A stretch of 15,709 nt of DNA, taken from contig JAISFM010000153.1 of NCBI GenBank assembly GCA_031263605.1, positions 1-15,709 on the forward strand, read 5' to 3'. The translations under genes were made by a program, and so were the position numbers. This document shows, piece by piece, positions 2 to 15,354 of this stretch. The notes under the pieces were generated by a model. It searched no databases. It was not told the origin of the DNA and saw only the letters and a program-made list of their open reading frames with translations. How positions within the stretch are numbered: position 1 is the stretch's first letter; each line of letters opens with the position of its first letter. This DNA is from Clostridiales bacterium (lineage in GTDB: Bacteria > Bacillota > Clostridia > Christensenellales > DUVY01).

Positions 2-976
2 GGCGTACTCGCCCTGTCCGTCGGCGCGGTCTTTTTGAACGCGGCGATCCCCGCCGACGCGGCGGCGGGCGGCTACGCGTGGTCGGAAAGCGCGGCGTTC
101 GCCCCCGATTTAGGGCCGTCGGCCGAAATGGGGGAGGATGGGCTGCGAATTCTGATCCTCACCGACCAACATTATACGCGCGTGTTCGGCGACGGCAAAA
201 CCGACCGCCTCGCGGACGCTTTGATACGGGACGAGCGGCCGGATTTGATTTTGCTGCTGGGCGACCAATGCTTTACGCCGTTCAACCGTTCCGCTTATAA
301 ACGCCTTATCGCGTTTATGGACGCGCGGAAAATCCCATGGGCGGCGATCTTCGGCAACCACGACGAGCAGGGCAAAGCGACAAAAAACCTGTTGGCGGAC
401 ATGCTGTCGAAATCCGAATATTGTTTGTTCCGGTACGGGCCGAATAATATCGGCGGCGCGGGCAATTACTTTGTCCGTTTGACGAGCGGCGGGCGGGACG
501 TCCACACCCTTTATTTTTTGGATTCCACGGTTAAAAAGGACGGGCATTACCAGCCGCCGACCGAGGGGCAGGTCCGTTGGTACGAATGGGCGGTACGCGG
601 CATGGCAGCCGAGGCGGGCGGGGTCGTCCCCTCTACGCTGCTGATCCATATCCCGCTGCCCGAATACGCGGCCGCATACGACGCGGCGGCGGCAAACGGG
701 GGCGTCGTTTACGGGCAGCGGAGGGAAAAGGAATGCGCGTCCGACGTCAATTCCGGCCTGTTTGAAAAGATCGGGGGTTTAGGCTCGACGAAAGGCGTCT
801 TTTGCGGCCACGACCATGTCAACGATTATTCGGTGATGCACGAGGGGGTTCGGCTGACTTACGCGCTGTCGTCGGGATTCGGCTCCTACGGCGACAGAAA
901 CGTCAAGGGCGGGACGGTTTTGACGGTGCGCCCCGACGGGGCGACGGAACAGGCACAGGTCTTTTTTAAAGGGTAG
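2..976 (+). CDS. Calcineurin-like metallophosphoesterase, 5'-partial. The reading frame is open to the window start, and the N-terminal hydrophobic stretch GVLALSVGAVFL suggests a signal or TM anchor.
   Basis: Metallophosphoesterase motifs are present in order: ILTDQHY (D-x-H), LLGDQ (GD), GNHDE (GNH[DE]) and GHDHVND (GH-x-H). The frame is open from nt 2, so the listed M at 35 is a TTG inside a longer frame. Confidence 0.75.
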   Translation, partial: GVLALSVGAVFLNAAIPADAAAGGYAWSESAAFAPDLGPSAEMGEDGLRILILTDQHYTRVFGDGKTDRLADALIRDERPDLILLLGDQCFTPFNRSAYKRLIAFMDARKIPWAAIFGNHDEQGKATKNLLADMLSKSEYCLFRYGPNNIGGAGNYFVRLTSGGRDVHTLYFLDSTVKKDGHYQPPTEGQVRWYEWAVRGMAAEAGGVVPSTLLIHIPLPEYAAAYDAAAANGGVVYGQRREKECASDVNSGLFEKIGGLGSTKGVFCGHDHVNDYSVMHEGVRLTYALSSGFGSYGDRNVKGGTVLTVRPDGATEQAQVFFKG

Positions 977-1018
977 GAAACCGCGATTAAGGCTATCCGC
1001 AAAAAGCGCGCCCATATT

Positions 1019-1180
1019 AGAACCTGTATTCACAGAACGAAACACATCTTTTCGGGTCTTTTCGCGCCCGTCCGCGTTCTTTTTCCTCGTCGTAGCGTTG
1101 CTGCGGCTTCGGAAAAACGCCTTGACGGACACAAAAACCCCTCAAAAATATGTTGTTTCTTATCTGTGAATACAGGTTCT
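1019..1180. repeat. Perfect 18-bp inverted repeat (agaacctgtattcacaga at 1019-1036; tctgtgaatacaggttct at 1163-1180) flanking ~125 bp. Each arm contains a GAAC-N4-ATTC near-Cheo-box motif.
   Basis: Exact reverse-complement match read directly from the sequence. It lies between the phosphoesterase stop and the next CDS and encloses a TTGACG -35-like hexamer at 1122-1127. Confidence 0.6.
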
Positions 1181-1201
1181 TAAACGGAAAGGCGGTCGGC
1201 G

Positions 1202-2074
1202 TTGACACAAAGGTATGCCGTAGTACCGTCCTGTCGCGCGGGGACAATCAACGGTTGCCTGTGCGGTATCGATATGTATTTTTCAAATAAAGCAAATGGG
1301 ACAAACCCGTTCCCGCAAAATGGAAAACAGGGGGAAAGCAGGGTTGAACTTGTTATAGCGGATAGCGCGGAATACAAGGAAACGACTTGCAAAAATTTTT
1401 ACTTTTGCTTCAAGGTAAGCAAGCAAAGCGACGGGTGGCAGTTCCGCGCAATGGACTACGTCGAATATAACGCGGCGCTTGGCAGGCAGGTCGTTTATAC
1501 GGGAGATATAAAGGACTACGAGGAAGCGAAAGAAACGTATAGAGGGCATAGCGTATGCGACCCGTTTTTAAGGCCGTACGAGCCCGCGGTTTTGGTACAC
1601 AGCACAACGCCGAACGGCTATACGCAAATCATAAAGGACGGCGCGTTAAAGTCGTGGAACAGAATCAAAAATGAAAACCGTATCGGCGAAGAAAATCCCA
1701 TAGGGAGGTTGTTGGGCGACCCCGAGGATTTCAGGGAATATGTTATGCTTGGGGGGCTTGGGTTTTGGAGCGAAATAGTGGTAAGTTCCAAACAAAAAGG
1801 ATATATTTGCATGGACGCGGATTGCGAATATACGGCGGGCGCGAGATTTTATTTTGACGCGTTAACGCTGATAAAAGAAAATTTACTTGTCCGCGACGGA
1901 ATGCATTATAAAGTGAAAGGCGAATTGCCGTTGAGGTACGCGCTGTTTTGCGCCGCGGCGGGGAATATTATTATAAGCGGCAAGATCACCCCAAGGGCTT
2001 TTGCGAGCGCGGCCGATGAAGCGTTCGCGCAAACGGAAAAGGCGGCAAATCTTTTTTCATATCGTCAAAAATAA
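1202..2074 (+). CDS. Hypothetical protein, 290 aa. It may have an ADP-ribosyltransferase-like fold, suggested by the LVHSTT...I..DGALKS, RFYFD and KGELPL spacing (H..Y..E), but this is unproven. A TTG start with a GGAAAGG RBS is favoured; ATG 1274 is the alternative start.
   Basis: Long ORF with GC3-rich codon usage. The convergent NUDIX gene ends 11 nt away. No confident family assignment can be made from sequence alone. Confidence 0.55.
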   Translation: MTQRYAVVPSCRAGTINGCLCGIDMYFSNKANGTNPFPQNGKQGESRVELVIADSAEYKETTCKNFYFCFKVSKQSDGWQFRAMDYVEYNAALGRQVVYTGDIKDYEEAKETYRGHSVCDPFLRPYEPAVLVHSTTPNGYTQIIKDGALKSWNRIKNENRIGEENPIGRLLGDPEDFREYVMLGGLGFWSEIVVSSKQKGYICMDADCEYTAGARFYFDALTLIKENLLVRDGMHYKVKGELPLRYALFCAAAGNIIISGKITPRAFASAADEAFAQTEKAANLFSYRQK

Positions 2075-2085
2075 TCATATAACCC

Positions 2086-2559
2086 TTATTCCTTACTTAT
2101 AAAATGCTCTATGCTATCCGACATGCTTTCTATTTTATCCTTTATAAAAGCGGGGTAAATTGTTAAATTTTTTATTTCGTTTATCGTTCGCCACTCTAAC
2201 AAGACTTTGCAATTATCTTTGTGCGATTCAAAATAATGATCGGGCAAATCGCCGTCGTTTTTTAATTTGATTAAATAATAGAACGCTACCGTATGCGCGT
2301 CTTTTTTGCCCCGTGTCCAAAAAATCTCCTCAACCCAAACGAGGCGGTTTACTATAATATCCGCGCCCGTTTCTTCTTTGTATTCTCTTATAAGCGCTTC
2401 TTCGGACGTTTCGCCCACTTTAACGTGCCCTCCGGGCAAAGCATACTCGTTCCCGCCCTTTTCTCTTTGAACGAAAATCTTATCGCCCCTTATGAGTACG
2501 CCCGCAGTCCTGAAACTGCAAACGCCGCGTTCGTCCGAAAACAGCCAATCCCTTTCCAT
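2086..2559 (-). CDS. NUDIX hydrolase
   Basis: Nudix box GGHVKVGETSEEALIREYKEETG matches GX5EX7REUXEEXGU. Length is 157 aa, typical for the family. Confidence 0.85.
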   Translation of the reverse strand: MERDWLFSDERGVCSFRTAGVLIRGDKIFVQREKGGNEYALPGGHVKVGETSEEALIREYKEETGADIIVNRLVWVEEIFWTRGKKDAHTVAFYYLIKLKNDGDLPDHYFESHKDNCKVLLEWRTINEIKNLTIYPAFIKDKIESMSDSIEHFISKE

Positions 2560-2671
2560 TTTGTCAGTTTACCATAAACCGACGCAAAAATCAAACCAAA
2601 TGTACGCCCCCCACCAAACGCGAGCGTTAAATAAAGGTATAAAACGGGTGTTAAATCCTCATAATAGACTT

Positions 2672-2728
2672 GTTGCGGAATTAAAAGGCGAGCGGAATTG
2701 CGATGGATTTTGCGGCAAACAAAGATAA
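2672..2728. repeat. Dispersed repeat R2, copy 1 (gttgcggaattaaaaggcgagcggaattgcg..gattttgcggcaaac). Copy 2 is at 4375-4427.
   Basis: The two copies are ~90% identical over ~55 nt. Confidence 0.6.
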
Positions 2729-2873
2729 AAATTGATGATTGCAACAACGCTGCTATCGAAATTTTTATCAAAGTTTGCCACAAAAAGACGCGCAAGGCCG
2801 CCGCAAGTTAATTTCGCAACAAGTCTAATAAGAGAAAGCGTTCAACGCTTTTTTACCGGAGGAGATTTTAACG

Positions 2874-3182
2874 GTGAAAGATTTACGGTGTTCTTTGGAC
2901 AACTGCTCGCACAACAAGGGGTTTATGTGCCGCGCGCGGCATATTCTGGTGACGGAGGAAGCGGACTGCGCGTCCTACAAACCCGAATTCGAGCGGGAAA
3001 GCGACGACAACATCATGTTCGAGGCGGGCATGGAGGGCTTTTCCCAGACGCTGGACGGCCCGAAGATTCATTGTTCCGCCGACAGTTGCGTTTTCAACAA
3101 ATCGGAAAAATGCGAGGCCAACGGCGTCAGCGTTTTGAGCGAGGCGCGGGAACCGGTTTGCGCCACGTTTGCGTTGAAATAG
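2874..3182 (+). CDS. DUF1540 domain protein (two Cys-rich repeats), GTG start
   Basis: GGAGGAG RBS about 9 nt upstream of the GTG. Duplicated C-x-x-C-x..C pattern (LDNCSHNKGFMC and HCSADSCVFNKSEKC) is typical of Firmicutes DUF1540. A rho-independent terminator follows. Confidence 0.7.
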   Translation: MKDLRCSLDNCSHNKGFMCRARHILVTEEADCASYKPEFERESDDNIMFEAGMEGFSQTLDGPKIHCSADSCVFNKSEKCEANGVSVLSEAREPVCATFALK

Positions 3183-3284
3183 GACGCCCCGCGCTTGCTG
3201 CCGCGAGGCGGCGGATAGAAAAACAGCAGAACTTGCGGCGGCCTTTCGCCTTTTATTTTCGCAAGGGGCCTGTGTATAGTTTAA

Positions 3285-3318
3285 TCGGACGGTTTATTTT
3301 GTGCGCCGTCCGATTTTT
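3285..3318 (+). terminator. Rho-independent terminator (tcggacgg-loop-ccgtccga + TTTTT). A second ccggaccgg + T7 hairpin lies at 3324-3345.
   Basis: 8-bp perfect stem followed by a T-run, downstream of the DUF1540 CDS. Confidence 0.65.
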
Positions 3319-3397
3319 CCGTTTGAAGCCGGACCGGTTTTTTTATCGCGCTTGCCTTTTGACGGGCATAGCGCGAGAAAAAGGCCCGTTTAATCAT

Positions 3398-4015
3398 TTA
3401 GCGGTTTCCGGTTCGGGGCCTTTGATAGTTCGGGTTTTTTATCTTGATCCACGCCTCGGCGCGCCGCCCGGGGAAATACTGCCCGTCCGACCGTTTGGCG
3501 ACAATCCCTTCTAAATTTTCCCGCGCGGCCGCTTGGAACAACGCTTTGCCCGCCGACGGGAAAACGTCGGTCAATTCGATATTGGCGAAATTCGCGCCGG
3601 CGAATAACCTTTCCAATACCTTGCGCCGCTCTTGCCAAGGCCGCTCTGTCAGGGTTTTGCCGTCCGACGCCAAAAGATCGAAAACGGCATAGCGGACGGG
3701 GGTTTCCTTTAAAAACCGCGCGGACGGTTTTTCGACCCGGTCGCGTTTTAGCAAACGATAGAAATCGGGCCGTCCGTCCGCGTTCAGCGCGATAATTTCG
3801 CCGTCCAAAACAACTTTGCGGTTTAAGTTTTTTAATTCGGCGGCGATTTCGGTATAGGTATTCGTTCGCCCGTGCCCCCGGCGGTTGACAAGGCGCGCGT
3901 CCCCGTCCCCGCAATAGGCCAGCATCCTCACGCCGTCGAATTTCAATTCAAAAACATAATCAGGGCTGTCGAACGCTTTTTCCGCCCTCGACAGCAGCAT
4001 CGGTTTAAATTCCAT
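3398..4015 (-). CDS. ATP-dependent DNA ligase, nucleotidyltransferase domain only (205 aa). It ends immediately after motif V. There is no OB domain and no recognisable SD, so it may be a truncated remnant or pseudogene.
   Basis: Motif I is KFDGVR (KxDGxR). FDLL (III), EGIVAK (IV) and WIKIK (V) are in the canonical order. The reverse complement of 4016-4035 shows no GGAGG. Confidence 0.65.
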   Translation of the reverse strand: MEFKPMLLSRAEKAFDSPDYVFELKFDGVRMLAYCGDGDARLVNRRGHGRTNTYTEIAAELKNLNRKVVLDGEIIALNADGRPDFYRLLKRDRVEKPSARFLKETPVRYAVFDLLASDGKTLTERPWQERRKVLERLFAGANFANIELTDVFPSAGKALFQAAARENLEGIVAKRSDGQYFPGRRAEAWIKIKNPNYQRPRTGNR

Positions 4016-4254: not shown

Positions 4255-4350
4255 GCGATTAGCGTCCAGTGTTGCCAATCTCTGTATAAAAATGTGCGTT
4301 TCGTGTTTTGTAGAGATTGCCGCGTCGCGCTGCGCGCTCCTCGCAATGAC
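4255..4350. repeat. R1 palindromic element, copy a. The right arm is gtagagattgccgcgtcgcgctgcgcgctcctcgcaatgac (4310-4350); the left arm is degenerate.
   Basis: The right arm is shared with copies at 4489-4530, 4540-4559 (partial), 5345-5386 and 12401-12441. The central tataaaaa..gcgtttcgtgtttt is shared with the 12326-12441 copy. Confidence 0.65.
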
Positions 4351-4374
4351 TTCGGCCGTTGCGCTCGCAACAGA

Positions 4375-4427
4375 GTTGCAGCGGAATTAAAAGGCGGGCG
4401 GAATTGCGCCGGATTTTTGCGGCAAAC
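4375..4427. repeat. Dispersed repeat R2, copy 2
   Basis: Matches 2672-2728. Confidence 0.6.
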
Positions 4428-4488
4428 CGAATGACAGAGGGCAGCGCGTTCGGAATGAGAGAGAAAAGCGCGGGGCGTTCCGGTGGTT

Positions 4489-4559
4489 GGTAGAGATTGC
4501 CGCGTCGCGCTTCGCGCTCCTCGCAATGACAACGGGGCGTTTGCGCTCCTCGCAATGAC
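4489..4559. repeat. R1 right-arm copy (4489-4530) plus a partial tandem right-arm fragment (4540-4559)
   Basis: ggtagagattgccgcgtcgcgcttcgcgctcctcgcaatgac, followed by gtttgcgctcctcgcaatgac. Confidence 0.65.
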
Positions 4560-4660
4560 CCCGTATTCATTTCGCTGCAAGTCTAATGACCGGTAATAGT
4601 TTGTACACTCCCCACCGTAAAACACTGGCGTAAAATAAAGTAATATGATATACTATTGCC

Positions 4661-4800
4661 ATTAAACGACATTTTTCTCATGTTGACCCGTCAAGGCGGG
4701 TCTATAAGAAGAAAACAATCCGGCTCCAAGCGGAAAATCGGACAGAGCACATAAAAGAATGTTCGTACCGGATCGATACCCCGCGGCTTGCGCGTTGACG
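4661..4800 (+). ncRNA. R3, a conserved ~140-nt intergenic element, copy 1. The second copy is at 15365-15506. It is either a candidate structured leader/small RNA or a dispersed repeat.
   Basis: Two same-orientation copies at roughly 80% identity. One stem, tccgN/tcgga, shows a G-U to A-U change between copies. An internal gacccg-tcaagg-cgggtc hairpin is present in copy 1. Both copies end with a TTGAC(G/A) hexamer. Confidence 0.35.
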
Positions 4801-6741: not shown

Positions 6742-6816
6742 TGGGGTGTAGCCAAGCGGTAAGGCACGGGACTTTGACTCCCGCATTCGTAGGTTCAAAT
6801 CCTCCCACCCCAGCCA
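6742..6816 (+). tRNA. tRNA-Gln (anticodon TTG)
   Basis: Cloverleaf folded by hand. Acceptor tggggtg/cacccca. Anticodon stem cggga/tcccg with loop cTTTGac (U33, A37). T-loop ttcaaat. Discriminator g plus encoded CCA. There is one T-stem mismatch and a 3-bp D-stem. Confidence 0.8.
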
Positions 6817-6930: not shown

Positions 6931-7920
6931 TTATTTTTGCGGCGTATGCATAAGCCGGAGTTGTTTTGCCAACCGTTCTTTGATTTGGCCTACAAAGCCT
7001 TGCGGGCTTAGGACTTTTACGGTGGGGCCGAAAGACAGTATCCGAATGAGCAATTCCGTTTCATCCGCAATATCGTAAGAGAGTTGGCAGGTATAAATAC
7101 CGCGATCGGGGTCATATTCGGTTTTGCGGTCAAAAGAGGCGAATTGCAACAGGAAACGTTCCAACGCATTCCGCTCCTTCGTGATTTCAAGCGTTATCGG
7201 CGGATTGGCATTCGGTTCTGTGAACAATTTGCGCACGATTTCCGGCGGCGCGCGGTGCGGCAAGCCCGACGGCTCAACCGAAACGATTCTGCCGAGATTT
7301 AAGGTTACTTTATTCAATTTTTGCGTTTTGGCGTTGAATGCGGCGCACAGCAGGCGGAATTTATCGTTAAGAGATGAATAACTTAATTTGAACGGGTGAT
7401 AGGCGCGTTGCGACCGCCCGACCCTTTCGCTGTGATAAACGATTGCGACGGGATACTTGTTTTTGCAGGCTTTTAGCAGTTCACGGAAGTTGGCGATATA
7501 AGCCGGGTCGCCGTAAGGGTCTCCGTCAAGGTGGCGGTCAACGGAAATAAAATCGCCCGCGTCAAAGGCGGGGGCGACGCCGCTTAACGCCCGCGCCAGC
7601 GTCGCCAGAGTTTCATCGCTTAAAAACAACCTTATGCGCGGGTCGGACAATAACGCTTTCAGCCACGATAATTCAAGTTGCGTCAGCGGCCGGATCGGCT
7701 GCGCGTCCAATTTTGAATAGTATAAATCGCCGCGCTTTTCCAGAAAGTTCCAGTCGCCGTCCAAAAGTTCGGGCAACAGGTGGAATGCCGTCTCGGAAAA
7801 ACCGTGTTCGCTTACGACGGCGTCGATATCTTTTTTGGAGACGCCGCCGCCGGCGCGCTTAACAATACGCGAAACTATGCCGTAGTAGCAGCCGTACAGT
7901 TCGGAAAACAGTTTACTCAT
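6931..7920 (-). CDS. WYL domain-containing protein, 329 aa (PafC-like partner). A WYL-like core (FRLLCAAF...LNLGRIVSVEP) is followed by a WCX-like C-terminus (ELLIRILSFGPTVKVLSPQGFVGQIKERL). Start at ATG 7920 with a GGGAGGAGG RBS, overlapping the upstream gene's stop by 8 nt.
   Basis: The C-terminal ILSFGP.V.VL.P motif is characteristic of WYL/WCX regulators. The N-terminus is paralogous to the upstream gene (MSKLFSEL vs MAEFSEL). The ORF-track M at 8007 lacks an RBS, so internal M30 with a strong SD is chosen. Confidence 0.65.
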   Translation of the reverse strand: MSKLFSELYGCYYGIVSRIVKRAGGGVSKKDIDAVVSEHGFSETAFHLLPELLDGDWNFLEKRGDLYYSKLDAQPIRPLTQLELSWLKALLSDPRIRLFLSDETLATLARALSGVAPAFDAGDFISVDRHLDGDPYGDPAYIANFRELLKACKNKYPVAIVYHSERVGRSQRAYHPFKLSYSSLNDKFRLLCAAFNAKTQKLNKVTLNLGRIVSVEPSGLPHRAPPEIVRKLFTEPNANPPITLEITKERNALERFLLQFASFDRKTEYDPDRGIYTCQLSYDIADETELLIRILSFGPTVKVLSPQGFVGQIKERLAKQLRLMHTPQK

Positions 7921-9145
7921 CGCCCGCCTCCTCCCGTATCCCGTACATCTCGGCCATGCGGCGGATATCGGCGGCCAGTTTTTTTTCAAGCCGGTCGGTC
8001 GATTCAAAAGATATAAGTCTGCCGATAAAAGTTTTTACCCACGGCATCGCTTCGTTAGCGTCGAATATATCCTTGGAAAACTTAAAAGTATTGTCGCCGA
8101 CGCGCTCGAACGCGCCGCCGCGCCCTTCCTTGTTTATCCTGCTTATAATATGCTTTTCACGGTTCTCGTCGATGCGCAGGGTCATAGAAAACCCCCTTTC
8201 GTTCCTTGAATCGCCGTCGAATGAAACGCCCCAGACCCTGCCGATGTTTCGGGAGAGGGATTCCTGTATTTCCATATAGTTTTCGACCGGTTCTAAGGCC
8301 GCGACGGATTTGATTGCGTCGAGGCGGTAGGTTGAAAACCTGCGGGAGGCGGGGAGGTACGCGCAAAGGTAGCGGCGGCCGCTCCAAAAACTGCACAGGA
8401 TTTTTGCGGGCACGACTCTGTTTTTTACCGGTTTCCCGCTTTTTGCGCCGACGAGTACGGCCTCGATTTCTTTATGTTCGCGCAGGGCGTCCAGAATATC
8501 GAAAAGGATTCCGTCTTCAAGCGTGTGCGCTATGTAATGGTGCTTGAACACGAATAAATCGTTTTCACAGCCGGTATTGTCCAAGATATAGTCGCCGATT
8601 ATGCCCAAGGCGCCGCTTTGGAAAAATTTGACGGCGTCCAAGATTTCGTCGTCTAAATTTACGGTGTTTTTTGATAGGCTGTAACGGAACGCTTTGCCGT
8701 TCTTTTCTTTGGTCAGAATGCCCAATCCCGCGTACTCGGCGCACTTGCCGCGCACGGTTTGCAGGTCAAAGAAGTTGCCGCTTTTAGCCGATATTTCATC
8801 GGTCAATTCGTCCGCCGACTTATCGCCGGTTTGCAACGCGTCCAAAATGTAAAAGTGCAGCATAATATCGTTGCCTGTGAAACTCTTGCTTTTCCACGCC
8901 GCGAATAAAGGGTTGGCGGGGATTTTTCCGCAATCCGCGGAAACGAACGAAACCTTACTGCCGCCGGCATAAGCCCATTTGAAGTTTTCGCCTAAATAAC
9001 TTTCGCAGCGGCGTTTTTCGTTATCGTATGTGCGGGCGGATTTCAATGAAAAATCATCGCGCGCCTTAAACCCGTATATGTAAAAGTCGCGCATAAAGTC
9101 TCTGATTTTATTGAAGTTTTTAATGAGTTCCGAAAATTCCGCCAT
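7913..9145 (-). CDS. WYL domain-containing protein, 410 aa (PafB-like partner). WYL motif: PAKILCSFWSGRRYLCAYLPASRRFSTYRLDAIKSV. C-terminus: MPWVKTFIGRLISFESTDRLEKKL.
   Basis: Start at ATG 9145 (GAGGT RBS), chosen over the ORF-track start at 9262. WYL consensus is wYLvay...r..R.frLdRI. It is translationally coupled (8-nt overlap) to the downstream WYL paralog. Confidence 0.65.
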   Translation of the reverse strand: MAEFSELIKNFNKIRDFMRDFYIYGFKARDDFSLKSARTYDNEKRRCESYLGENFKWAYAGGSKVSFVSADCGKIPANPLFAAWKSKSFTGNDIMLHFYILDALQTGDKSADELTDEISAKSGNFFDLQTVRGKCAEYAGLGILTKEKNGKAFRYSLSKNTVNLDDEILDAVKFFQSGALGIIGDYILDNTGCENDLFVFKHHYIAHTLEDGILFDILDALREHKEIEAVLVGAKSGKPVKNRVVPAKILCSFWSGRRYLCAYLPASRRFSTYRLDAIKSVAALEPVENYMEIQESLSRNIGRVWGVSFDGDSRNERGFSMTLRIDENREKHIISRINKEGRGGAFERVGDNTFKFSKDIFDANEAMPWVKTFIGRLISFESTDRLEKKLAADIRRMAEMYGIREEAGDE

Positions 9146-9214
9146 AGCGTACAACCTCGAACTATGCGTACATATTGTATCAAAAAAACGCGCGCAAGTC
9201 AAAGTAACGGAAGG

Positions 9215-9270
9215 CTCGCAAACTTTTTTATACGCAAAACCGTGTTTTTCGGGTTTTCGCAAACTTTTCT
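9215..9270. promoter_or_regulatory. Divergent intergenic region with direct repeats, a candidate operator for the WYL pair or the rtcB promoter. The repeats are ctcgcaaactttttta (9215-9230) and ttcgcaaacttttct (9256-9270), plus cgcaaaac at 9233-9240.
   Basis: Repeats are spaced ~41 bp apart (about four helical turns) between the WYL-B start (9145) and the rtcB start (9342). TTGATA and TATAAT-like hexamers are present at 9291-9312. Confidence 0.4.
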
Positions 9271-9341
9271 ATTCGGTAATTATAGATCGGGCTTGATATA
9301 ATGGCGGTATAATCAAAACGATCAAACGGAGGGCAAAAGCA

Positions 9342-10574
9342 ATGTTCACGGTAAAAAACAAAAAAATGAAGTTTCCGATTAAGGCTTGGCTTAAAAACAG
9401 AAGCCAAACGGAAGAGGGGTGTTTGGAGCAGGCCATGCGCCTTGCCGAGATGCCGTTTTTACATAAATGGGTCGCCCTTATGCCCGACGCGCATGTCGGA
9501 ATGGGAATGCCTATCGGCGGCGTTATCGCTGCGAAAGGCGTTGTAATCCCGAACGCGGTCGGCGTCGATATCGGGTGCGGCATGGCTTATGCGGGGACGG
9601 ATATCAGGGTTGCGGAGGTACGGGGAATCGCCACAGGCAACGGGCCGTTCATGCAGGCCCTTGTGGGGGATATACTCCGCAACATTCCGGTCGGCTTTAA
9701 CCGCCATAAGACAAAACAGGCTTGCGCCGCTTTGGACAAGGCGGCCGCCGAGGCGGATAAATACGCGGCGAACCCCGAACTTGCCCGGGAGATAGAAAAC
9801 GGATACTATCAAGCCGGAACGTTGGGCGGCGGCAATCATTTTATCGAAATTCAGGAATCCGACGACGGATTTTTGGGAATCATGATCCATTCGGGCAGCC
9901 GCAACTTCGGAAAGCAAATATGCGACTATTATCATAAAGCCGCCCGCGCGCTCAACGAAAAGTGGTACGCGCCTATTCCCGACGAATGGCGGCTGGCGTT
10001 CTTGCCGATCGACAGCAAGGAAGGGAAACAATATATCGACTGGATGAATCTTGCGCTTGACTTTGCCTATGAAAACCGCGCGTTGATGTTGAAGGCGACG
10101 CAAAACATACTGGACAGGATGATGCAAAAATACGCGCATGCCGACTATAAGTATACGGACGAGATTAACTGCCACCACAATTACGCCGCTATCGAGCATC
10201 ATTATGACGCGAACGTCTGGGTTCACCGTAAGGGCGCGACAAGGGCGAGAGCGGGCGAGAGGGCTGTAATCCCCGGAGCGATGGGCTCTTACAGTTATAT
10301 CGTCGAGGGATTAGGGAATGCGGAAAGTTTTTGTTCGAGTTCTCACGGCGCGGGCAGGCGGTATTCCCGTAAGGGCGCGACGGAAGCGTTTACGGCCGAA
10401 CAGGTACTGCGCGACTTAAAGGGGCAAGGCGTTGTGTTGGGCAAAAACAACAAAGCCGACGTCGCCGAAGAAAGCCGCTTCGCGTACAAGGACATAGACG
10501 AAGTTATGAGCAATCAAAAAGACCTCGTTAAAGCCGTAACGCGCTTGAAAACCGTGGGCGTCGTAAAGGGCTGA
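9342..10574 (+). CDS. rtcB: RNA ligase RtcB (3'-phosphate/5'-OH RNA-splicing ligase), 410 aa
   Basis: GGAGGG RBS. Hallmark segments: PDAHVGMGMPIGGV, GVDIGCGM, GGGNHFIEIQ, HSGSRNFG, CHHNYA, and SSHGAGR containing the nucleophilic His. Confidence 0.9.
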   Translation: MFTVKNKKMKFPIKAWLKNRSQTEEGCLEQAMRLAEMPFLHKWVALMPDAHVGMGMPIGGVIAAKGVVIPNAVGVDIGCGMAYAGTDIRVAEVRGIATGNGPFMQALVGDILRNIPVGFNRHKTKQACAALDKAAAEADKYAANPELAREIENGYYQAGTLGGGNHFIEIQESDDGFLGIMIHSGSRNFGKQICDYYHKAARALNEKWYAPIPDEWRLAFLPIDSKEGKQYIDWMNLALDFAYENRALMLKATQNILDRMMQKYAHADYKYTDEINCHHNYAAIEHHYDANVWVHRKGATRARAGERAVIPGAMGSYSYIVEGLGNAESFCSSSHGAGRRYSRKGATEAFTAEQVLRDLKGQGVVLGKNNKADVAEESRFAYKDIDEVMSNQKDLVKAVTRLKTVGVVKG

Positions 10575-11080: not shown

Positions 11081-12184
11081 ATGAAAATCATCATCCATCA
11101 AAACGAGCGCGGTTTCTTATTCAAGAACGGTACATACAAGAGGATGCTGCAACCCGGCAAAAACAAGGTAAATACTTTTTTAGGCGAGACCTTTGTGCGC
11201 GTCGGTTTGGACAAACCGGTTAAGGTCGCCGGTACGGATACGGAGATTTTAATGCGGGACGCGGAGTTTGCCGCAAGCGTGTTAAAGGTTGACGTCCCCG
11301 ACGGCTGTTTCGGCGCGGTTTTCAAGGACAACTGCATCAAGGACATCTATAAGGCGGGTAGTCATGTCTTTTTCAACCTCTACGGCAACCTGTCTTTCAA
11401 ATTGATCGACATTTCCAAGGTGGAGGTTGAGGACCTGACCCCTTCGCAGATTGACAGCCTGCCGAAAGGCCTTTACAAAAAGATTGTCGTTGCCGAGGGC
11501 GAGGTGGGTTTGTTAAATCTTGACGGTAAGTTTGTCCGTGAACTGAAAGCGGGCGCGTACTGCTTTTGGGATGCTTATACCGCCGTAACTTGCGAGAAGG
11601 TCGATTTGCGCTCTCAGGAACTGGAAATTAACGGTCAAGAGATTTTGACCGCCGATAAGGTATCTTTGCGCGTAAACTTTATCGCGAACTACCGCGTCAC
11701 GGACGCCGTTAAAATCACCGGAGAGGTCAAGAACTACAAGGAGCGCATCTATACGGTTACGCAACTGGCTTTGCGCGAGTATATCGGCAAGTTCCGTTTC
11801 GACGAACTTTTGGAACAGAAAGAGAATATCGCGTCAAGCGTTTTGACCCAACTTCAAGCAAAGTTCGGCGAATATTGCGTTGAGTTTACGGGCGCGGGCT
11901 TAAAGGACATCGTCCTGCCCGGCGAGATTCGGGACATCATGAACACCGTTCTGATTGCCGAGAAAAACGCTCAAGCCAACGTTATCGCCCGTCGCGAGGA
12001 GGTCGCGTCCACCCGGAGTTTGCTTAACACGGCCAAACTTTTGGACGAAAACGCCACGCTTTACAGGTTAAAGGAAATGGAATATTTAGAAAAAATCTGC
12101 GACAAGGTCGGCACAATCTCCGTCGGCGGCGGCAGCCTCTTAACCGAACTTCAAAAAATCGTCGGCGCGCCCCGGGCTAAATAG
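11081..12184 (+). CDS. SPFH/band-7 (stomatin/prohibitin/flotillin-like) domain protein, 367 aa
   Basis: AGGAGAAGCGGAGAA RBS. SPFH-like core: LREYIGKFRFDELLEQKENI...IVLPGEIRDIMNTVLIAEKNAQANVIARREE. Confidence 0.6.
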   Translation: MKIIIHQNERGFLFKNGTYKRMLQPGKNKVNTFLGETFVRVGLDKPVKVAGTDTEILMRDAEFAASVLKVDVPDGCFGAVFKDNCIKDIYKAGSHVFFNLYGNLSFKLIDISKVEVEDLTPSQIDSLPKGLYKKIVVAEGEVGLLNLDGKFVRELKAGAYCFWDAYTAVTCEKVDLRSQELEINGQEILTADKVSLRVNFIANYRVTDAVKITGEVKNYKERIYTVTQLALREYIGKFRFDELLEQKENIASSVLTQLQAKFGEYCVEFTGAGLKDIVLPGEIRDIMNTVLIAEKNAQANVIARREEVASTRSLLNTAKLLDENATLYRLKEMEYLEKICDKVGTISVGGGSLLTELQKIVGAPRAK

Positions 12185-12331
12185 GCTTGCGGCGAAAATG
12201 AATCACCCTGCGGCAAGACCGCGAGGAATTTACCCGGAGAGATTAAAAGGTAAGCGGAAAGACGCCCAAAGGCCGCCCGCGAAAATGTCCGCGCCGCGAG
12301 GTCGGGAGTGGACAAATAGCGATGATACTGG

Positions 12332-12441
12332 GTCATCGCGAGGAGCGAACGCAGTGAGCGACGAAGCAATCTCTATATAAAAAGGCGCGTTTCGTGTTTT
12401 GTAGAGATTGCCGCGTCGCGCGTCGCGCTCCTCGCAATGAC
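12332..12441. repeat. R1 element, complete inverted-repeat copy. Left arm gtcatcgcgaggagcgaacgcagtgagcgacgaagcaatctcta; central tataaaaaggcgcgtttcgtgtttt; right arm gtagagattgccgcgtcgcgcgtcgcgctcctcgcaatgac. It is followed by the R4 module gtttgtacaccactcccgtgagg (12466-12510; compare 4598-4625).
   Basis: The arms are reverse complements of each other over ~40 nt. Same family as 4255-4350 and others. Confidence 0.7.
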
Positions 12442-12521
12442 TTGCCGTGTTTACAATCAACGCGGTTTGTACACCACTCCCGTGAGGTTAACAGTTTCTA
12501 CACCCGCGAGGTTAAAATCGT

Positions 12522-12550
12522 TTGACGGCGGGCGAATTTTAGTATATAAT
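12522..12550 (+). promoter_or_regulatory. Promoter for the rtcB2-prfH operon: -35 TTGACG (12522-12527), 17-bp spacer, -10 TATAAT (12545-12550)
   Basis: Canonical hexamers with correct spacing. A leader ORF and terminator follow. Confidence 0.6.
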
Positions 12551-12580
12551 ATTTATATCCTGCAAACGGAGGGTCTTATC

Positions 12581-12616
12581 ATGCGTGTGCAAAATTTGGA
12601 AAATTTAATAGTTTAG
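12581..12616 (+). CDS. 11-codon leader ORF (MRVQNLENLIV) with a strong GGAGGG RBS 7 nt upstream
   Basis: Perfect SD and spacing, sited between the promoter and an intrinsic terminator. Speculative as a regulatory leader peptide. Confidence 0.35.
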   Translation: MRVQNLENLIV

Positions 12617-12642
12617 AACGGTAAAATCGTACTCTTGATAGG

Positions 12643-12671
12643 AGCCGCGGTTTTTCGCCGCGGCTTTTTTA
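12643..12671 (+). terminator. Intrinsic terminator (agccgcgg-tttttcg-ccgcggct + T6) in the leader of the rtcB2-prfH operon. The 3' half ccgcggcttt is repeated at ~12718-12730 (ccgccgcggctttggcg), and a second hairpin cggcttg...caagccgTTTTcat lies at ~12698-12751, consistent with alternative attenuator structures.
   Basis: 8-bp perfect GC stem plus T-run. The duplicated 3' strand was read directly. Confidence 0.6.
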
Positions 12672-12776
12672 ATGTCTAAAACGGGAATATTCCTTTTTAC
12701 GGCTTGTCTGTTAATCCGCCGCGGCTTTGGCGATTTTTAGGCAAGCCGTTTTCATATGTCAATAAAAAAGGAATTT

Positions 12777-13850
12777 ATGAATACAAATAACAAATTGACT
12801 ATCGTCTCGGACGATAAAAACTGGATGGAGGGCAGCGCGGTAAATCAAGCCCGTGAGGTTTGCAATCTTGACGGGGTTCAAGCCGTGTTCGCTATGCCCG
12901 ACCTTCACGCGGGCAAAACGCCCGTAGGGGTAGTCGTCATCACAAAGGGCAAAATCTACCCTCATTTAATCGGCTCGGATATCGGTTGCGGAATGAGTAT
13001 ATTCTCGACCGGCGTCGAGAGCAAAAGAATCAAAACGGACAGGTGGGTTAGCCGCCTTAACACGATCAAAACCTTGGCGGCGGTTCCGAATAGCGAATAC
13101 CGTTTCGATTGCCCGATACCGGATTTCGGAAGCATAGGCTCCGGCAACCATTTCGCCGAGTTTCAAGCAATCCACGAGGTCTTTGACGCGGGCGGTTTGG
13201 CGGCTCTGGCAATGGACAAATCCGAACTTTTTATGACCGTTCACAGTGGATCGAGAAGTTACGGGAGTAAAATCTTGCAAGAGTTTAACGACCGCAACGG
13301 CTACGCCGCGGACGGCAAAGAGGCAAAAGGATATCTGGAAAAACACGGCGACGCTCTTTTTTGGGCGGCAAAGAACAGGTATGAGTCGGCAAAGAAGTTA
13401 ATCGATTACTTGGGCTTTTCGCAAGCGGTAGAGCGCAAACTGGAATGCGGCCATAATTTTTTGGAGCGGTCCGGCGGCTTGTATTATCACCGCAAGGGAG
13501 TTGTGTCCGCTCAAACCGGCGCAGTGCTTATCGCGGGTTCGAGAGGGACGCTCAGTTACATCGTAAGGCCGACGGCTAAATGCGCGGAGTACGGTTACAG
13601 TTTGGCGCACGGTAGCGGCAGGAAATGGGCGCGCAGTATGTGTAAGCCCCGCATTCGGGAAAAGTACACCTTGGAAACAATCAAGCGGAACAAGTTCGGC
13701 GGCCAACTGGTTTGCCACGATTACGGTTTGCTGTTCGAGGAAGCGCCGGACGCGTACAAGAATGTGGACGTTATTATTGCCGTATTGGAACGGTACGGCA
13801 TGATTGAGCGCGTCGCCGCCCTCAAACCTGTGCTTACTTTTAAGGGTTAG
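12777..13850 (+). CDS. rtcB2: RtcB-family RNA ligase paralog (release factor H-coupled RtcB2), 357 aa. ATG 12777 with an AAGGA RBS is preferred to ATG 12756.
   Basis: RtcB motifs: MPDLHAGKTPVGVVV, GSDIGCGM, GSGNHFAEFQ, HSGSRSYG, CGHNF, and AHGSGRK containing the nucleophilic His. It sits immediately upstream of prfH. Confidence 0.85.
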   Translation: MNTNNKLTIVSDDKNWMEGSAVNQAREVCNLDGVQAVFAMPDLHAGKTPVGVVVITKGKIYPHLIGSDIGCGMSIFSTGVESKRIKTDRWVSRLNTIKTLAAVPNSEYRFDCPIPDFGSIGSGNHFAEFQAIHEVFDAGGLAALAMDKSELFMTVHSGSRSYGSKILQEFNDRNGYAADGKEAKGYLEKHGDALFWAAKNRYESAKKLIDYLGFSQAVERKLECGHNFLERSGGLYYHRKGVVSAQTGAVLIAGSRGTLSYIVRPTAKCAEYGYSLAHGSGRKWARSMCKPRIREKYTLETIKRNKFGGQLVCHDYGLLFEEAPDAYKNVDVIIAVLERYGMIERVAALKPVLTFKG

Positions 13851-13864
13851 GGGGGGAGGAGCGT

Positions 13865-14476
13865 ATGTTATACCACATAACGGCGGGGCGCGGCCCTGCG
13901 GAATGCGAACTTGCGGTCGGAAGGTTTCTGGCCGTTTTGGCCGCCGAGACGGACGTTGAGGTTTTGGCGAAGGCGGAAGGGCGGTACGCGGGCTGCCTGA
14001 AATCCGCGCTTGTGAGGGCGGGCATAAACGGCCCGCCCTTGCAAGGCACGGTGCAATGGATATGCAGAAGCCCGTTCCGCCCTAACCACAAGAGAAAGAA
14101 TTGGTTTATCGGCGTTAACCGAATGGACGAGCCGAAAGATTGCGGTTATGAAATCGGCGGCGGCGGCGGCGTGGTTTTTCAGACCTTCGGCGCGAGCGGC
14201 AAGGGCGGGCAGCACGTAAACAAAACGGAATCCGCCGTCCGCGCCATCCATATCGCAACGGGGCTTACGGCGACCGCAAGCGGCGAGCGCAGCCAACATC
14301 AGAACAAGAAAACCGCCGTGGAGCGGTTGAATGAGTTGCTTCGGCAACGGGAGGACAGCCGGGATCTTTCCGAAAAGGGCGCGCTCTTTTTCAACCATAA
14401 TAACCTGTCCCGCGGCAGCCCCGCGCGGATATACGAGGGTATCGGCTTTAAGCGGATTACAGGAGATACAACATGA
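13865..14476 (+). CDS. prfH: Peptide chain release factor H (PrfH): a short RF homolog with the GGQ motif, lacking the codon-recognition domain 1. 203 aa.
   Basis: GGAGGAG RBS. SGKGGQHVNKTESAVRAIHIATG is the class-I RF peptidyl-hydrolase GGQ loop. The ~200 aa size and rtcB paralog adjacency match the RtcB2-PrfH module. Confidence 0.85.
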   Translation: MLYHITAGRGPAECELAVGRFLAVLAAETDVEVLAKAEGRYAGCLKSALVRAGINGPPLQGTVQWICRSPFRPNHKRKNWFIGVNRMDEPKDCGYEIGGGGGVVFQTFGASGKGGQHVNKTESAVRAIHIATGLTATASGERSQHQNKKTAVERLNELLRQREDSRDLSEKGALFFNHNNLSRGSPARIYEGIGFKRITGDTT

Positions 14477-15354
14477 GGATTATTTCAAATTTTAAGGACT
14501 ACTACGACTTTGCGGGCTTTGCCGCGCGTGACGGCGATTATAGGGAAACCGTATACTTGCGCAAGCCCGCGTTAAAAGTAACGGACGTGCCGCAGGAATA
14601 TGCCGACGCCAATCCTCAAAATTATTACGGCGGCGGCTTGGACGCGGTTACATCGAAGTGGTGGACGAAAAACAAAAAGGTATTTTCTTTGCCCGATACG
14701 CCCGGCGGCGCGCGGCCGGGCTGCCTTTTTGTATGCGGTAAAGCCTATCCGTTTTTATTCCTGCGCGGGGCGGCTCGAATCGGCGCGGACGGTAAAGGCG
14801 GGCAAATTAGGTTTTCAAAGTATTTTAACGACGCTATCAAAGACAGTATCGCTAAAAAGCGGGAAAAGCATAATTGGGAGCGCGATAGAAAAGACGAGGA
14901 CGAATTCAATTTTTTTAGAGTTTATTATTCTATGCGTGAATTTTTTGAGGACGCGACGGCCGAAAAGCATACCGTTTATTATTCCCGACGGTATAGATCG
15001 GATAATTTAGAGCGCGACCTAACGCGATTCTTTGACTTTTATGAGGGCAAAGATTTTACCGAGTTGCATTTGCGTTTGGATTGCCCGATTTTCCTTACGC
15101 TTTTTCAGGAAAGCGGAGTTAGGCGGGGCGATTTACGGCGCGAATACGAATTTGTTTTAAATCCGAACCTCTATGAATTTGATTTCGCAAGGGTTATGAG
15201 CGGCGATATTTTAGCGCAGGAACTGGATATGTTTTTAGGGAACGCGCTTGTCAAGGACAGTATGCCGCTTTCATACCAGTCCGATATCGATAAACTGACG
15301 GCATACGGTTTCGACGCCGTAACGTCGTTTCGGACTATAAAAGACAAGAAATAG
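14473..15354 (+). CDS. Hypothetical protein, 293 aa. Its start overlaps the prfH stop (ATGA), making it the third gene of the rtcB2-prfH operon.
   Basis: The 4-nt overlap implies translational coupling. GC3-rich coding-like usage. No recognisable motif. Confidence 0.6.
   Translation: MRIISNFKDYYDFAGFAARDGDYRETVYLRKPALKVTDVPQEYADANPQNYYGGGLDAVTSKWWTKNKKVFSLPDTPGGARPGCLFVCGKAYPFLFLRGAARIGADGKGGQIRFSKYFNDAIKDSIAKKREKHNWERDRKDEDEFNFFRVYYSMREFFEDATAEKHTVYYSRRYRSDNLERDLTRFFDFYEGKDFTELHLRLDCPIFLTLFQESGVRRGDLRREYEFVLNPNLYEFDFARVMSGDILAQELDMFLGNALVKDSMPLSYQSDIDKLTAYGFDAVTSFRTIKDKK

Follow-up and report, generated by a model that had tools for sequence, protein, structure and literature searches.

An RtcB2-PrfH locus of Clostridiales with a translationally coupled third gene and a putative leader-peptide attenuator

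What do a third gene and an elaborate leader contribute to a ribosome-repair operon that has been described as two genes? The question is raised by a contig from a metagenome-assembled genome labelled Clostridiales bacterium (NCBI GenBank assembly GCA_031263605.1, contig JAISFM010000153.1), analysed over its whole length of 15,709 nucleotides (nt) and referred to here as the window. Between 12522 and 15354 it carries rtcB2, encoding a paralog of the RNA ligase RtcB, then prfH, encoding a release-factor homolog, and then orf3, an open reading frame (ORF) of 293 amino acids (aa). To our knowledge, RtcB2-PrfH is the only known repair system for ribotoxin-cut ribosomes, and its regulation and accessory factors are essentially unstudied. 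The E. coli pair acts in succession: PrfH frees the peptide from ribosomes whose 16S rRNA has been cut at the decoding centre (EcPrfH, CgPrfH; PMC9304027, PMC12829566), the cut being made in that system by a colicin-E3-type ribotoxin, and RtcB2 then re-ligates the 16S rRNA (PMC9304027, PMC9223846, PMC13166195). The reading of the locus that we favour, with a probability of roughly 0.55 taken as a whole, is that it forms one transcription unit in which orf3 encodes an accessory enzyme and the leader keeps the operon off and reports the status of translation.

The rtcB2-prfH-orf3 cassette

The three genes of the unit are:
12777..13850, forward strand: rtcB2, PrfH-associated RtcB-family RNA ligase, 357 aa (Pfam RtcB, TIGR03073, conserved start)
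13865..14476, forward strand: prfH, release-factor homolog H, 203 aa, with GGQ, without domain 1 and without a C-terminal tail (TIGR03072, Pfam RF-1)
14473..15354, forward strand: orf3, 293 aa, member of a PHROG 4243-like family, coupled to prfH via ATGA

A preliminary description, drawn from the sequence by eye, had taken the RtcB paralog and the GGQ-containing factor for an RtcB2-PrfH module, and the family searches agree, with both products scoring above the cut-offs of the corresponding families. The rtcB2 product matches Pfam RtcB (2.9e-56) and exceeds the cut-off of NCBIfam TIGR03073 'release_rtcB' (330.1 bits vs 271.8), while falling marginally below that of NF007153 (401 vs 407); an HGSGR motif can be read directly in its translation. 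PrfH exceeds the TIGR03072 equivalog cut-off (183.7 bits vs 166.65) with residues 1-192 covered, and matches Pfam RF-1 over residues 105-167 only (1.4e-21), RF domain 1 being absent. The GGQ peptidyl-hydrolase motif is seen in its translation as GKGGQHVNKTESAVR. The start of rtcB2 was placed at ATG 12777, behind the Shine-Dalgarno (SD) sequence AAGGA (12768-72), rather than at the first in-frame ATG upstream (12756), because 12777 is the start conserved among homologous loci, in which 12756 is not kept. On the same strand and directly 3′ of rtcB2, prfH begins at 13865 after the rtcB2 end at 13850, with the SD GGGGGGAGGAG in between. RtcB2 is separate from a second, canonical RtcB of the same window (9342-10574, 410 aa, Pfam 383 bits). 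From these assignments we infer that RtcB2 and PrfH of the window share the rescue and repair function of the E. coli pair. As in the E. coli operon (PMC9304027, PMC9223846, PMC13166195; Baranov et al. 2006, PMC1586002), an RtcB paralog lies upstream of, and is translationally linked to, a GGQ factor without domain 1, and the 203-aa length of the window PrfH corresponds to the tail-less EcPrfH type in the available text of PMC12829566. The E. coli system, however, is described as two genes, whereas the window cassette adds an overlapping third gene and a conserved leader with an upstream ORF (uORF) and a terminator, known here from sequence.

The ATG of orf3 overlaps the TGA of prfH as ATGA (14473-14476), with GGAG 8 nt upstream, so that the ORF does start inside the prfH stop codon as the preliminary description had it. 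The same arrangement of leader, rtcB2, prfH and orf3 is found in seven or more further metagenomic contigs whose flanks are unrelated (L001/L002, L003/L004/L005/L016, L009, L010, L017, L019 and L020) and in one decayed copy, L018, in which the leader and the first 25 rtcB codons are fused to the middle of orf3. We take the three-gene unit to be real because it recurs among such unrelated flanks, which include NAD-salvage genes, GmrSD and primase-like genes, RsgA, LeuA, GntR/ABC and VWA. Linkage of orf3 homologs to prfH elsewhere, on which the preliminary description had staked its proposal of a unit longer than the two-gene module, was found in eight distinct cassettes with differing flanks, the homolog lying 3′ of prfH in each. 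The overlap of prfH stop and orf3 start is ATGA or GTGA in six independent cassettes, with an internal SD in every one; in L010 the two genes stand 244 nt apart. Close relatives of orf3 number only about 18 among 5.8 billion proteins, and those with 55-60% identity to it (P0002-P0006, P0008), as well as P0014 (35%), all stand directly after rtcB-prfH. Across cassettes, identity to the window proteins is 69-84% for RtcB2, 69-80% for PrfH and 35-60% for orf3, and the GC content of orf3 is 0.467 vs 0.52-0.59 in rtcB2 and prfH. Taken together, the comparisons make a solid case for counting the third gene as part of the operon, conserved and translationally coupled. The distribution of the cassette is rare: it is a gut-Clostridia version of the RtcB2-PrfH pair, found in a handful of metagenomic contigs.

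Two of the related loci have features of their own. In L020 (278-559) an extra 93-aa, very basic, Cys-rich ORF (CDYGCEHC...C) without a match in Pfam or PHROG lies between prfH and orf3 and overlaps the orf3 start. In the AT-rich cassette L010 (327-620, 2090-2788), RtcB has an N/K-rich low-complexity N-terminal extension, and PrfH has an internal duplication of about 28 aa near the segment that precedes GGQ (VIFQTF...GVIFQTF).

Additional operonic genes have been described for this pair. The available text of Burroughs & Aravind (2019, PMC6514570) names a TPR protein, a Pol-beta-superfamily nucleotidyltransferase (NTase), a protein with Zn-ribbon and charged helix, and a charged helical protein as RFH-RtcB accessory genes, and presents the sporadic gain of operonic genes by a two-gene core as typical of counter-conflict systems. 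The cassette is like these in its gain of a gene, and the 93-aa ORF of L020 may correspond to their Zn-ribbon/charged type. Unlike them, orf3 matches none of the four types named there, and searches of Pfam and NCBIfam gave it no signal for a TPR, an NTase or a Zn-ribbon.

The orf3 protein family and its genomic contexts

In the preliminary description orf3 had no recognisable domain. This stands for Pfam, NCBIfam and PADLOC, in which orf3 has no match (across 65 family members nothing appeared in Pfam or NCBIfam even at E <= 10), but not for phage protein families: PHROG 4243, a family of unknown function, is matched by orf3 at 2.6e-11 and by 14 of its 15 close relatives, at best with 1.2e-22. 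An exhaustive profile search found 7,804 cluster representatives at E <= 1e-3 and 5,969 at E <= 1e-10, clusters being counted at 50% identity. Among the best 150 representatives listed, all are single-domain proteins of about 145-305 aa. The phage members, from Salmonella phage Arash (gp52c), T4-like Rhizobium RHph phages and Ralstonia jumbo phage RsoM2USA, are all annotated as hypothetical, as are further members in Aeromonas, Acidovorax and Cellulophaga phages. By these profile matches, orf3 is not an orphan and belongs to a very large, mostly phage-borne family.

Conservation within this family is concentrated at particular residues. Near-invariant in 176 distant members are M1, I3, S5, D9, Y10, Y11, D12, R30, C88, G89, P205, N230, L233, Q249, E250, D271, G279, F280, D281, S285, F286 and R287, and the window orf3 retains every position that is conserved in at least 85% of them. 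The polar family-invariants that it keeps are S5, D9, Y10, Y11, D12, R30, C88, N230, Q249, E250, D271, D281, S285 and R287. The pattern of invariant positions resembles that of an active site or a site for ligand binding, and not that of a toxin-specific interface.

An AlphaFold model built from a 65-sequence alignment reached a predicted local distance difference test score (pLDDT) of 79.5 and a predicted template modelling score (pTM) of 0.79; an earlier model from 15 sequences (pLDDT 54) was too poor and was set aside. A Foldseek search of the model against the PDB gave nothing informative and detected no nuclease-like fold, and a fold search of BFVD returned only uncharacterised phage members of the family. 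With respect to ATP-grasp enzymes (Ddl, RimK, LysX, graspetide ligases), orf3 has no sequence-profile match: no ATP-grasp Pfam family was found across the 65 members, and there was no PDB sequence match. We treat 'ATP-grasp-like' as a lead and not as membership. A GK(G/S/A)GQ loop in orf3 (residues ~105-112, window 14785-14808, GKGGQ) was considered as a GGQ motif and rejected; it departs from strict GGQ, the loop is modelled with low confidence and is missing from P0014 and the phage members, and the resemblance is probably coincidental.

In phages, members of the family are found among genes for translation and RNA repair. The orf3 homolog lies inside a tRNA gene array in Stenotrophomonas phage DLP_6 and Sinorhizobium jumbo phage Phosso, and tRNA or transfer-messenger RNA (tmRNA) genes occur within 6 kb of the homolog in 22 of 60 IMG/VR loci, seven of the 22 having a phage tmRNA. 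RlaP (PF10127), an 'RNA repair pathway' nucleotidyltransferase, is encoded about 2.8 kb upstream of the homolog in five phage loci. In L024 the homolog is followed 2.4 kb downstream by RtcB and in L030, at 300 nt, by a ligase-like ORF, and L058 has a GGQ-like ORF nearby. A 124-aa phage neighbour was guessed to be a Pth2-like peptidyl-tRNA hydrolase, and this was not confirmed. The tmRNA gene was seen 1-5 kb upstream of the family gene in L040, L045, L048, L054, L066, L070 and L073, with RlaP as well in five loci, and the grouping of tmRNA, RlaP and orf3-family genes may be a phage 'translation rescue/repair' gene cluster. These contexts are like those of known phage and bacterial RNA-repair modules, namely T4 Pnk/Rnl1, Pnkp-Hen1 and RtcB with RlaP (Burroughs & Aravind 2016, as cited in the available text of PMC6514570), in that phage relatives of orf3 lie among tRNA/tmRNA genes and some lie near RtcB, a ligase-like ORF or RlaP. 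The association is partial, with tRNA/tmRNA genes in 22/60 loci and repair enzymes in a few loci only, and unlike the components of those modules, orf3 has no detectable similarity to their kinases, phosphatases, ligases, methyltransferases or NTases.

A bacterial sister clade, P0010-P0012, has 46-49% identity to orf3. In L007/L008 the homolog is coupled through a 4-nt overlap to a DUF503 gene (97-aa product), and in L007 an RNase P RNA gene (4305-4756; Rfam RF00010, 250.9 bits) lies 340 nt upstream of this pair. In the available text of PMC7157823, a DUF503 protein is among the ribosome-associated proteins enriched under tetracycline stress in Streptomyces. P0017 is preceded by a DUF2795 gene (74-aa product), and P0010 (L087) is standalone, without an upstream partner. 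Phage and sister-clade contexts together point to a family function on the translation apparatus that would not strictly require RtcB2-PrfH, and they speak against an obligate toxin-antidote relationship.

The leader and the DNA around the operon

Upstream of rtcB2 we recognised the following elements:
12476..12515, forward strand: two direct repeats ACnCCCGyGAGGTTAA, 24 nt apart, abutting the -35 (repeat search)
12522..12550, forward strand: sigma-70/SigA-type promoter TTGACG-17 nt-TATAAT (11/12 consensus match)
12568..12616, forward strand: SD GGAGG (12568-72) and 11-codon uORF (12581-12616), MRVQNLENLIV, stop TAG
12618..12630, forward strand: tentative hairpin H1 directly after the uORF stop (weak evidence: seen by eye, not recovered by RNAalifold)
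12640..12670, forward strand: intrinsic terminator T1, with A-rich 5′ flank, stem GCCGCGG/CCGCGGC, 7-nt loop and U6 tail (12644-12670), in minimum free energy (MFE) and centroid folds
12683..12698, forward strand: hairpin H2 (GGGAAT/ATTCC) and U-run, the 3′ arm and U-run forming an anti-SD for rtcB2
12699..12752, forward strand: long hairpin H3 (12699-12749) with GCGGC, a repeat of the T1 5′ arm, in the apical loop, and a U-run behind it
12764..12776, forward strand: rtcB2 ribosome-binding site AAAAAGGAATTT, which the anti-SD at 12690-12698 is predicted to sequester (RNAalifold, 3 compensatory pairs)

The canonical promoter, the 11-codon ORF with its SD and the strong intrinsic terminator of the preliminary description are all present, and each recurs in related loci. 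Both promoter boxes, -35 and -10, are unchanged in L001, L003 and L009, and L018 has them as well; GGTTAAAnnGTTTGAC is found upstream of the -35 in L001 and L010 as well; the direct repeats of the window are a possible UP element or operator. SD, spacing and length of the uORF are identical in L001, L003, L009 and L010, and its version in L018 is 3 codons longer. Its peptides are MRVQNLENLIV, MRVTNLEKLII, MRVQNLKELNI, MRVTNLRKLNI and MRATNLENLTV, with MRTTKLEILII(LKR) in L018. Leu9 is encoded by UUA, CUA, CUG or UUG, and Arg2, Asn5 and Leu6 show the synonymous changes CGU/CGC, AAU/AAC and UUG/UUA. Because codons change synonymously, Leu9 by four codons, selection on the uORF is taken to act at the level of the peptide, on which the uORF is conserved; tRNA-specific codon sensing was ruled out, since the Leu9 codons are read by different isoacceptors.

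From promoter to hairpins, the leader is kept in L001, L003, L009 and L018, and L010 keeps it through the terminator, recurrence thus comprising five intact cassettes and one decayed copy. Its mean pairwise nucleotide identity is 0.69, vs 0.52, 0.50 and 0.41 at third codon positions of rtcB2, prfH and orf3, and we consider the leader to be under strong constraint because it is more conserved than these positions in the adjoining genes. Scans of genomes and metagenome contigs with the leader pattern gave only the same cassettes and chance matches (L013, L015).

T1 was missed by a simple terminator scanner and recovered by folding. It is present in all six leaders, with a compensatory change between G-C and A-U and, in L010, U-A. 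The position of H1 is kept in each locus with different stems (ACG/CGU, CGG/CCG, CGGU/ACCG, CGGA/UCCG), and H2 is found in all leaders with stems that differ. The 12-pair stem of H3 has 7 of its pairs changed on both sides among 5 loci, and its loop motif covaries with T1, with G in the window and A in the others. RNAalifold applied to five leaders gave 49 consensus pairs, 11 of them compensatory, mostly in H3 and the anti-SD helix, with one in T1. In its closing helix (columns 155-164 with 252-261), UUCCUUUUU (12690-98) pairs with the rtcB2 SD region AAAAAGGAA (12764-72), and H2 (12683-93) competes for this anti-SD. The occluded rtcB2 SD is a second layer of control beyond T1 which, like the two extra conserved hairpins between T1 and rtcB2, was absent from the preliminary description. 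The leader has three copies of a CRCGG(C/U) motif: one 5′ of the SD of the uORF, one in the 5′ arm of T1 and one in the loop of H3.

The leader had also been called a leader-peptide attenuator, and this claim stands in part: an SD-preceded uORF upstream of a terminator is conserved, but folding revealed no ribosome-dependent antiterminator. Constrained MFE folding of five leaders, a thermodynamic prediction only, found no antiterminator competing with T1, and alternatives to T1 appeared only when its 5′ arm was artificially blocked. Judged from sequence comparison, the architecture of a leader-peptide attenuator is conserved, and the word 'attenuator' refers to this architecture; a nascent-peptide, kinetic or trans-acting-factor mechanism is possible. 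Two further ideas were set aside. Read-through of the uORF stop into T1 was rejected, the in-frame extension reaching T1 in the window only and not in L001 or L003. The vague resemblance of the window leader to 16S h44/h45 is not conserved in other loci, and mimicry of these helices was likewise rejected.

Leaders that sense translation stress through ribosome-dependent leader-peptide regulation are familiar from the erm, cat and vmlR type. The E. coli toiL-topAI uORF is another such case in the available text of PMC12121999. Like these, the window has an SD-preceded conserved uORF, then a terminator and an occluded SD, before an operon related to translation stress; unlike them, its leader shows in folding no antiterminator or anti-anti-SD pairing tied to occupancy of the uORF.

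SD-preceded uORFs were also found before other rtcB2-prfH operons. Ahead of the remnant operon ykfJ-prfH of E. coli K-12 there is an AAGGAGG-N7-ATG uORF encoding MTNPLSMTLCRPFQD (L088 2226-2290; K-12 253225-253289). Three Ralstonia species have a 14-codon uORF that starts with AGGAGG-N8/9-ATG and keeps its frame and length (L089 1700-1765, L094, L095); it encodes MRYTVPPLCGPRLG, MRHLAFPFAGPCLG and MQHAVSLLCRPRLG, and its conserved codons at the C-terminal end vary synonymously. The proteobacterial uORFs (14-15 codons) are unannotated in the records and share an L-C-(G/R)-P motif. By simple criteria no such uORF was found in Skermanella or in the copy on a Klebsiella IncC plasmid. No leader or third gene is mentioned for prfH in the available texts of PMC12829566, PMC9223846 and PMC1586002, or in what a library search pairing prfH with leader, uORF or attenuation returned. 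The window leader, together with the E. coli and Ralstonia uORFs, suggests that leader translation controls ribosome-repair operons.

Outside the operon, the window holds further genes of related kinds. The canonical RtcB gene (9342-10574) is divergent from two WYL/WCX-domain genes on the minus strand (7913-9262, 6931-8007), and 6931-10574 has the look of a distinct RNA-repair locus under WYL regulation within the 15 kb of the window. The region 35-4015 is rich in nucleic-acid repair genes, with a metallophosphoesterase (35-976), a NUDIX protein (2086-2559, minus strand) and a minimal 205-aa ATP-dependent DNA/RNA ligase domain protein (3398-4015, minus strand), and a tRNA-Gln(TTG) gene lies at 6742-6816. 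An SPFH/Band-7 gene (11081-12184, Pfam 4.1e-32) stands immediately upstream of the cassette and is not beside it in other loci. Between this gene and the promoter, a long imperfect inverted repeat (12332-12441), with arms GTCATCGCGAGGAGCG / CGCTCCTCGCAATGAC and inner 34-nt arms, looks like an element of the repetitive extragenic palindrome (REP) or miniature inverted-repeat transposable element (MITE) type, and a related CTCGCAATGAC motif occurs in the unrelated contig L015. Another motif, AATGAATCnCCC..GGCAAGACC..GG...ACCCGGAGAGATTAAAA, is common to window 12198-12250, 5′ of the cassette, and to L007 4810-4930, 5′ of the DUF503-orf3-homolog pair; it may be a dispersed repeat of these Clostridia genomes.

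Weighing the explanations

Starting from the observed gene identities, gene order, translational overlaps, conservation and covariation, the favoured reading would place everything in one transcription unit, running from a SigA promoter through the translated 11-codon uORF, T1 and a structured spacer to rtcB2-prfH-orf3. Within it, orf3 would be the third component, co-translated in stoichiometric amounts; it would have been recruited from a family that is found for the most part in large phages, there preferentially in tRNA/tmRNA regions, and would act as an enzyme on a universal component of the translation machinery; we take it to be active because every family-invariant polar residue is kept. 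Its contribution to the cassette would most likely be an accessory step on the damaged or rescued ribosome, or on its RNA ends, before or alongside sealing by RtcB2. The leader would probably hold the operon off in two layers, through premature termination at T1 and through burial of the rtcB2 SD in the base helix of H3, and in the proposed coupling damaged decoding centres would cause ribosomes to stall or fail on the uORF, giving more T1 read-through, a freed rtcB2 SD or both. Two parts, what orf3 does biochemically and which signal the leader senses, each carry moderate to low confidence.

Several observations weigh against this reading. On visual reading, the signature residues of ATP-grasp enzymes, with their ATP/Mg-binding motif, are not evident among the orf3 invariants, and no universal partner gene accompanies the family in 68 phage loci. 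Proximity to tRNA genes in phages stands without a matched background, and many of the tmRNA/RlaP loci represent one phage lineage; closeness to tRNA, tmRNA and RNA-repair genes is suggestive only. The closest non-cassette relatives do not adjoin prfH (P0011 with DUF503, P0017 with DUF2795, P0010 standalone), and an orf3-type protein does not need RtcB2-PrfH, because these relatives exist without it. As to the leader, its covariation is drawn from only 5-6 sequences, and T1 is kept in the MFE fold in 14 of 15 simulated ribosome-occupied states (ribosome at AUG, codon 6 or stop in five leaders), the sole loss being L009 with the ribosome at codon 6; in free folds it is kept in 5/5. A spacing of 26-33 nt separates the uORF stop from the downstream T1 stem, which is too great a distance for direct steric interference.

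The persistence of T1, the lack of an antiterminator and this long distance would also be expected if the leader did not sense translation. Promoter, uORF and T1 would then be an independent micro-gene for an 11-aa peptide or a short sRNA, with T1, H2 and H3 insulating an operon that is expressed by constitutive leak or through a trans-acting factor binding the repeated CRCGG motifs. The triple motif covaries, as for a shared binding site or alternative pairing, and no Rfam family was found for the leader in a search of the whole window at E <= 1, which gave a sub-threshold, terminator-like BSnc120 match (23 bits vs a gathering threshold (GA) of 114). We nevertheless hold this account of the leader to be unlikely, though it deserves serious attention. 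Since the stretch from T1 to rtcB2 holds no conserved promoter-like element, transcription of the operon has to pass through T1; peptide-level conservation of a uORF directly before a terminator is a hallmark of ribosome-dependent leaders; and SD-preceded uORFs recur before unrelated proteobacterial rtcB2-prfH operons.

The role of orf3 can be construed in other ways as well. The preliminary description had offered a toxin/antitoxin-like component as one option, and in that case orf3 would damage RNA or ribosomes and RtcB2-PrfH would serve as antidote or reset in a reversible growth-arrest or abortive-infection-like system, an idea already raised for the prfH operon in the available text of Baranov et al. 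(2006, PMC1586002); phage members of the family would strike at host translation, with the phage tRNA array compensating. Gene order and 4-nt overlaps are like those of antitoxin-toxin pairs, a small DUF503 or DUF2795 gene lies upstream in sister clades, the operon is tightly insulated by T1, H3 and SD occlusion, orf3 evolves faster than its partners (35-60% vs 69-84% identity), and phage copies occur within tRNA arrays. Against it, a type II toxin would be tied to a cognate upstream antitoxin, whereas P0010/L087 is standalone and no recurrent partner was found in 68 phage loci. PADLOC gave no match, no nuclease-like fold was detected, and some phage homologs lie near RtcB, a ligase or RlaP, a setting that suits repair better than damage. 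With its invariant enzyme-like residues also considered, we find a toxin quite improbable, and less likely than an enzyme on a universal substrate. Still more doubtful is a non-catalytic specificity or immunity factor that neutralises a given ribotoxin or targets RtcB2-PrfH to a given lesion. It would agree with orf3 being the fastest-evolving gene of the cassette and co-translated with PrfH, and with the accessory scaffolding and RNA-binding proteins known around RFH-RtcB pairs from the available text of PMC6514570, but some 20 polar or aromatic near-invariants in the 176 distant members fit a site for a universal ligand rather than a toxin-specific interface, and 293 aa is far above the typical size of immunity proteins. 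We give similarly little credence to orf3 being a phage-derived passenger, inserted 3′ of prfH in one lineage and spread with the cassette without a tie to ribosome repair. The family is overwhelmingly phage-borne, orf3 has a GC content below that of its partners, sister clades occupy other contexts, and all cassettes come from a narrow set of metagenomes; yet the overlap with the prfH stop and the internal SD have been kept despite divergence of orf3 to 35% (P0014) and a full change of flanks, its reading frame and all invariant residues are preserved, and the decayed L018 lost the whole cassette as a unit.

Returning to the favoured reading, a bolder extension of it is speculative and, taken as a whole, rather unlikely. 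Here orf3 and its PHROG 4243 relatives would be hitherto unrecognised translation-machinery repair or counter-defence enzymes, carrying out a third step such as end-healing, re-modification or remodelling of nuclease-damaged rRNA, tRNA or ribosomes in thousands of large phages and in the cassette, and the leader peptides of rtcB2-prfH operons in Clostridia, E. coli and Ralstonia would be direct sensors of ribosome damage that switch repair on. The relatives of orf3, with about 7,800 clusters, make up one of the larger uncharacterised phage protein families; its function, once assigned, would give thousands of phage genes an annotation and could bring to light a new step of RNA or ribosome repair, or of phage counter-defence. 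Control of ribosome-repair operons by leader translation would, if true, be a natural way to sense ribosome damage.

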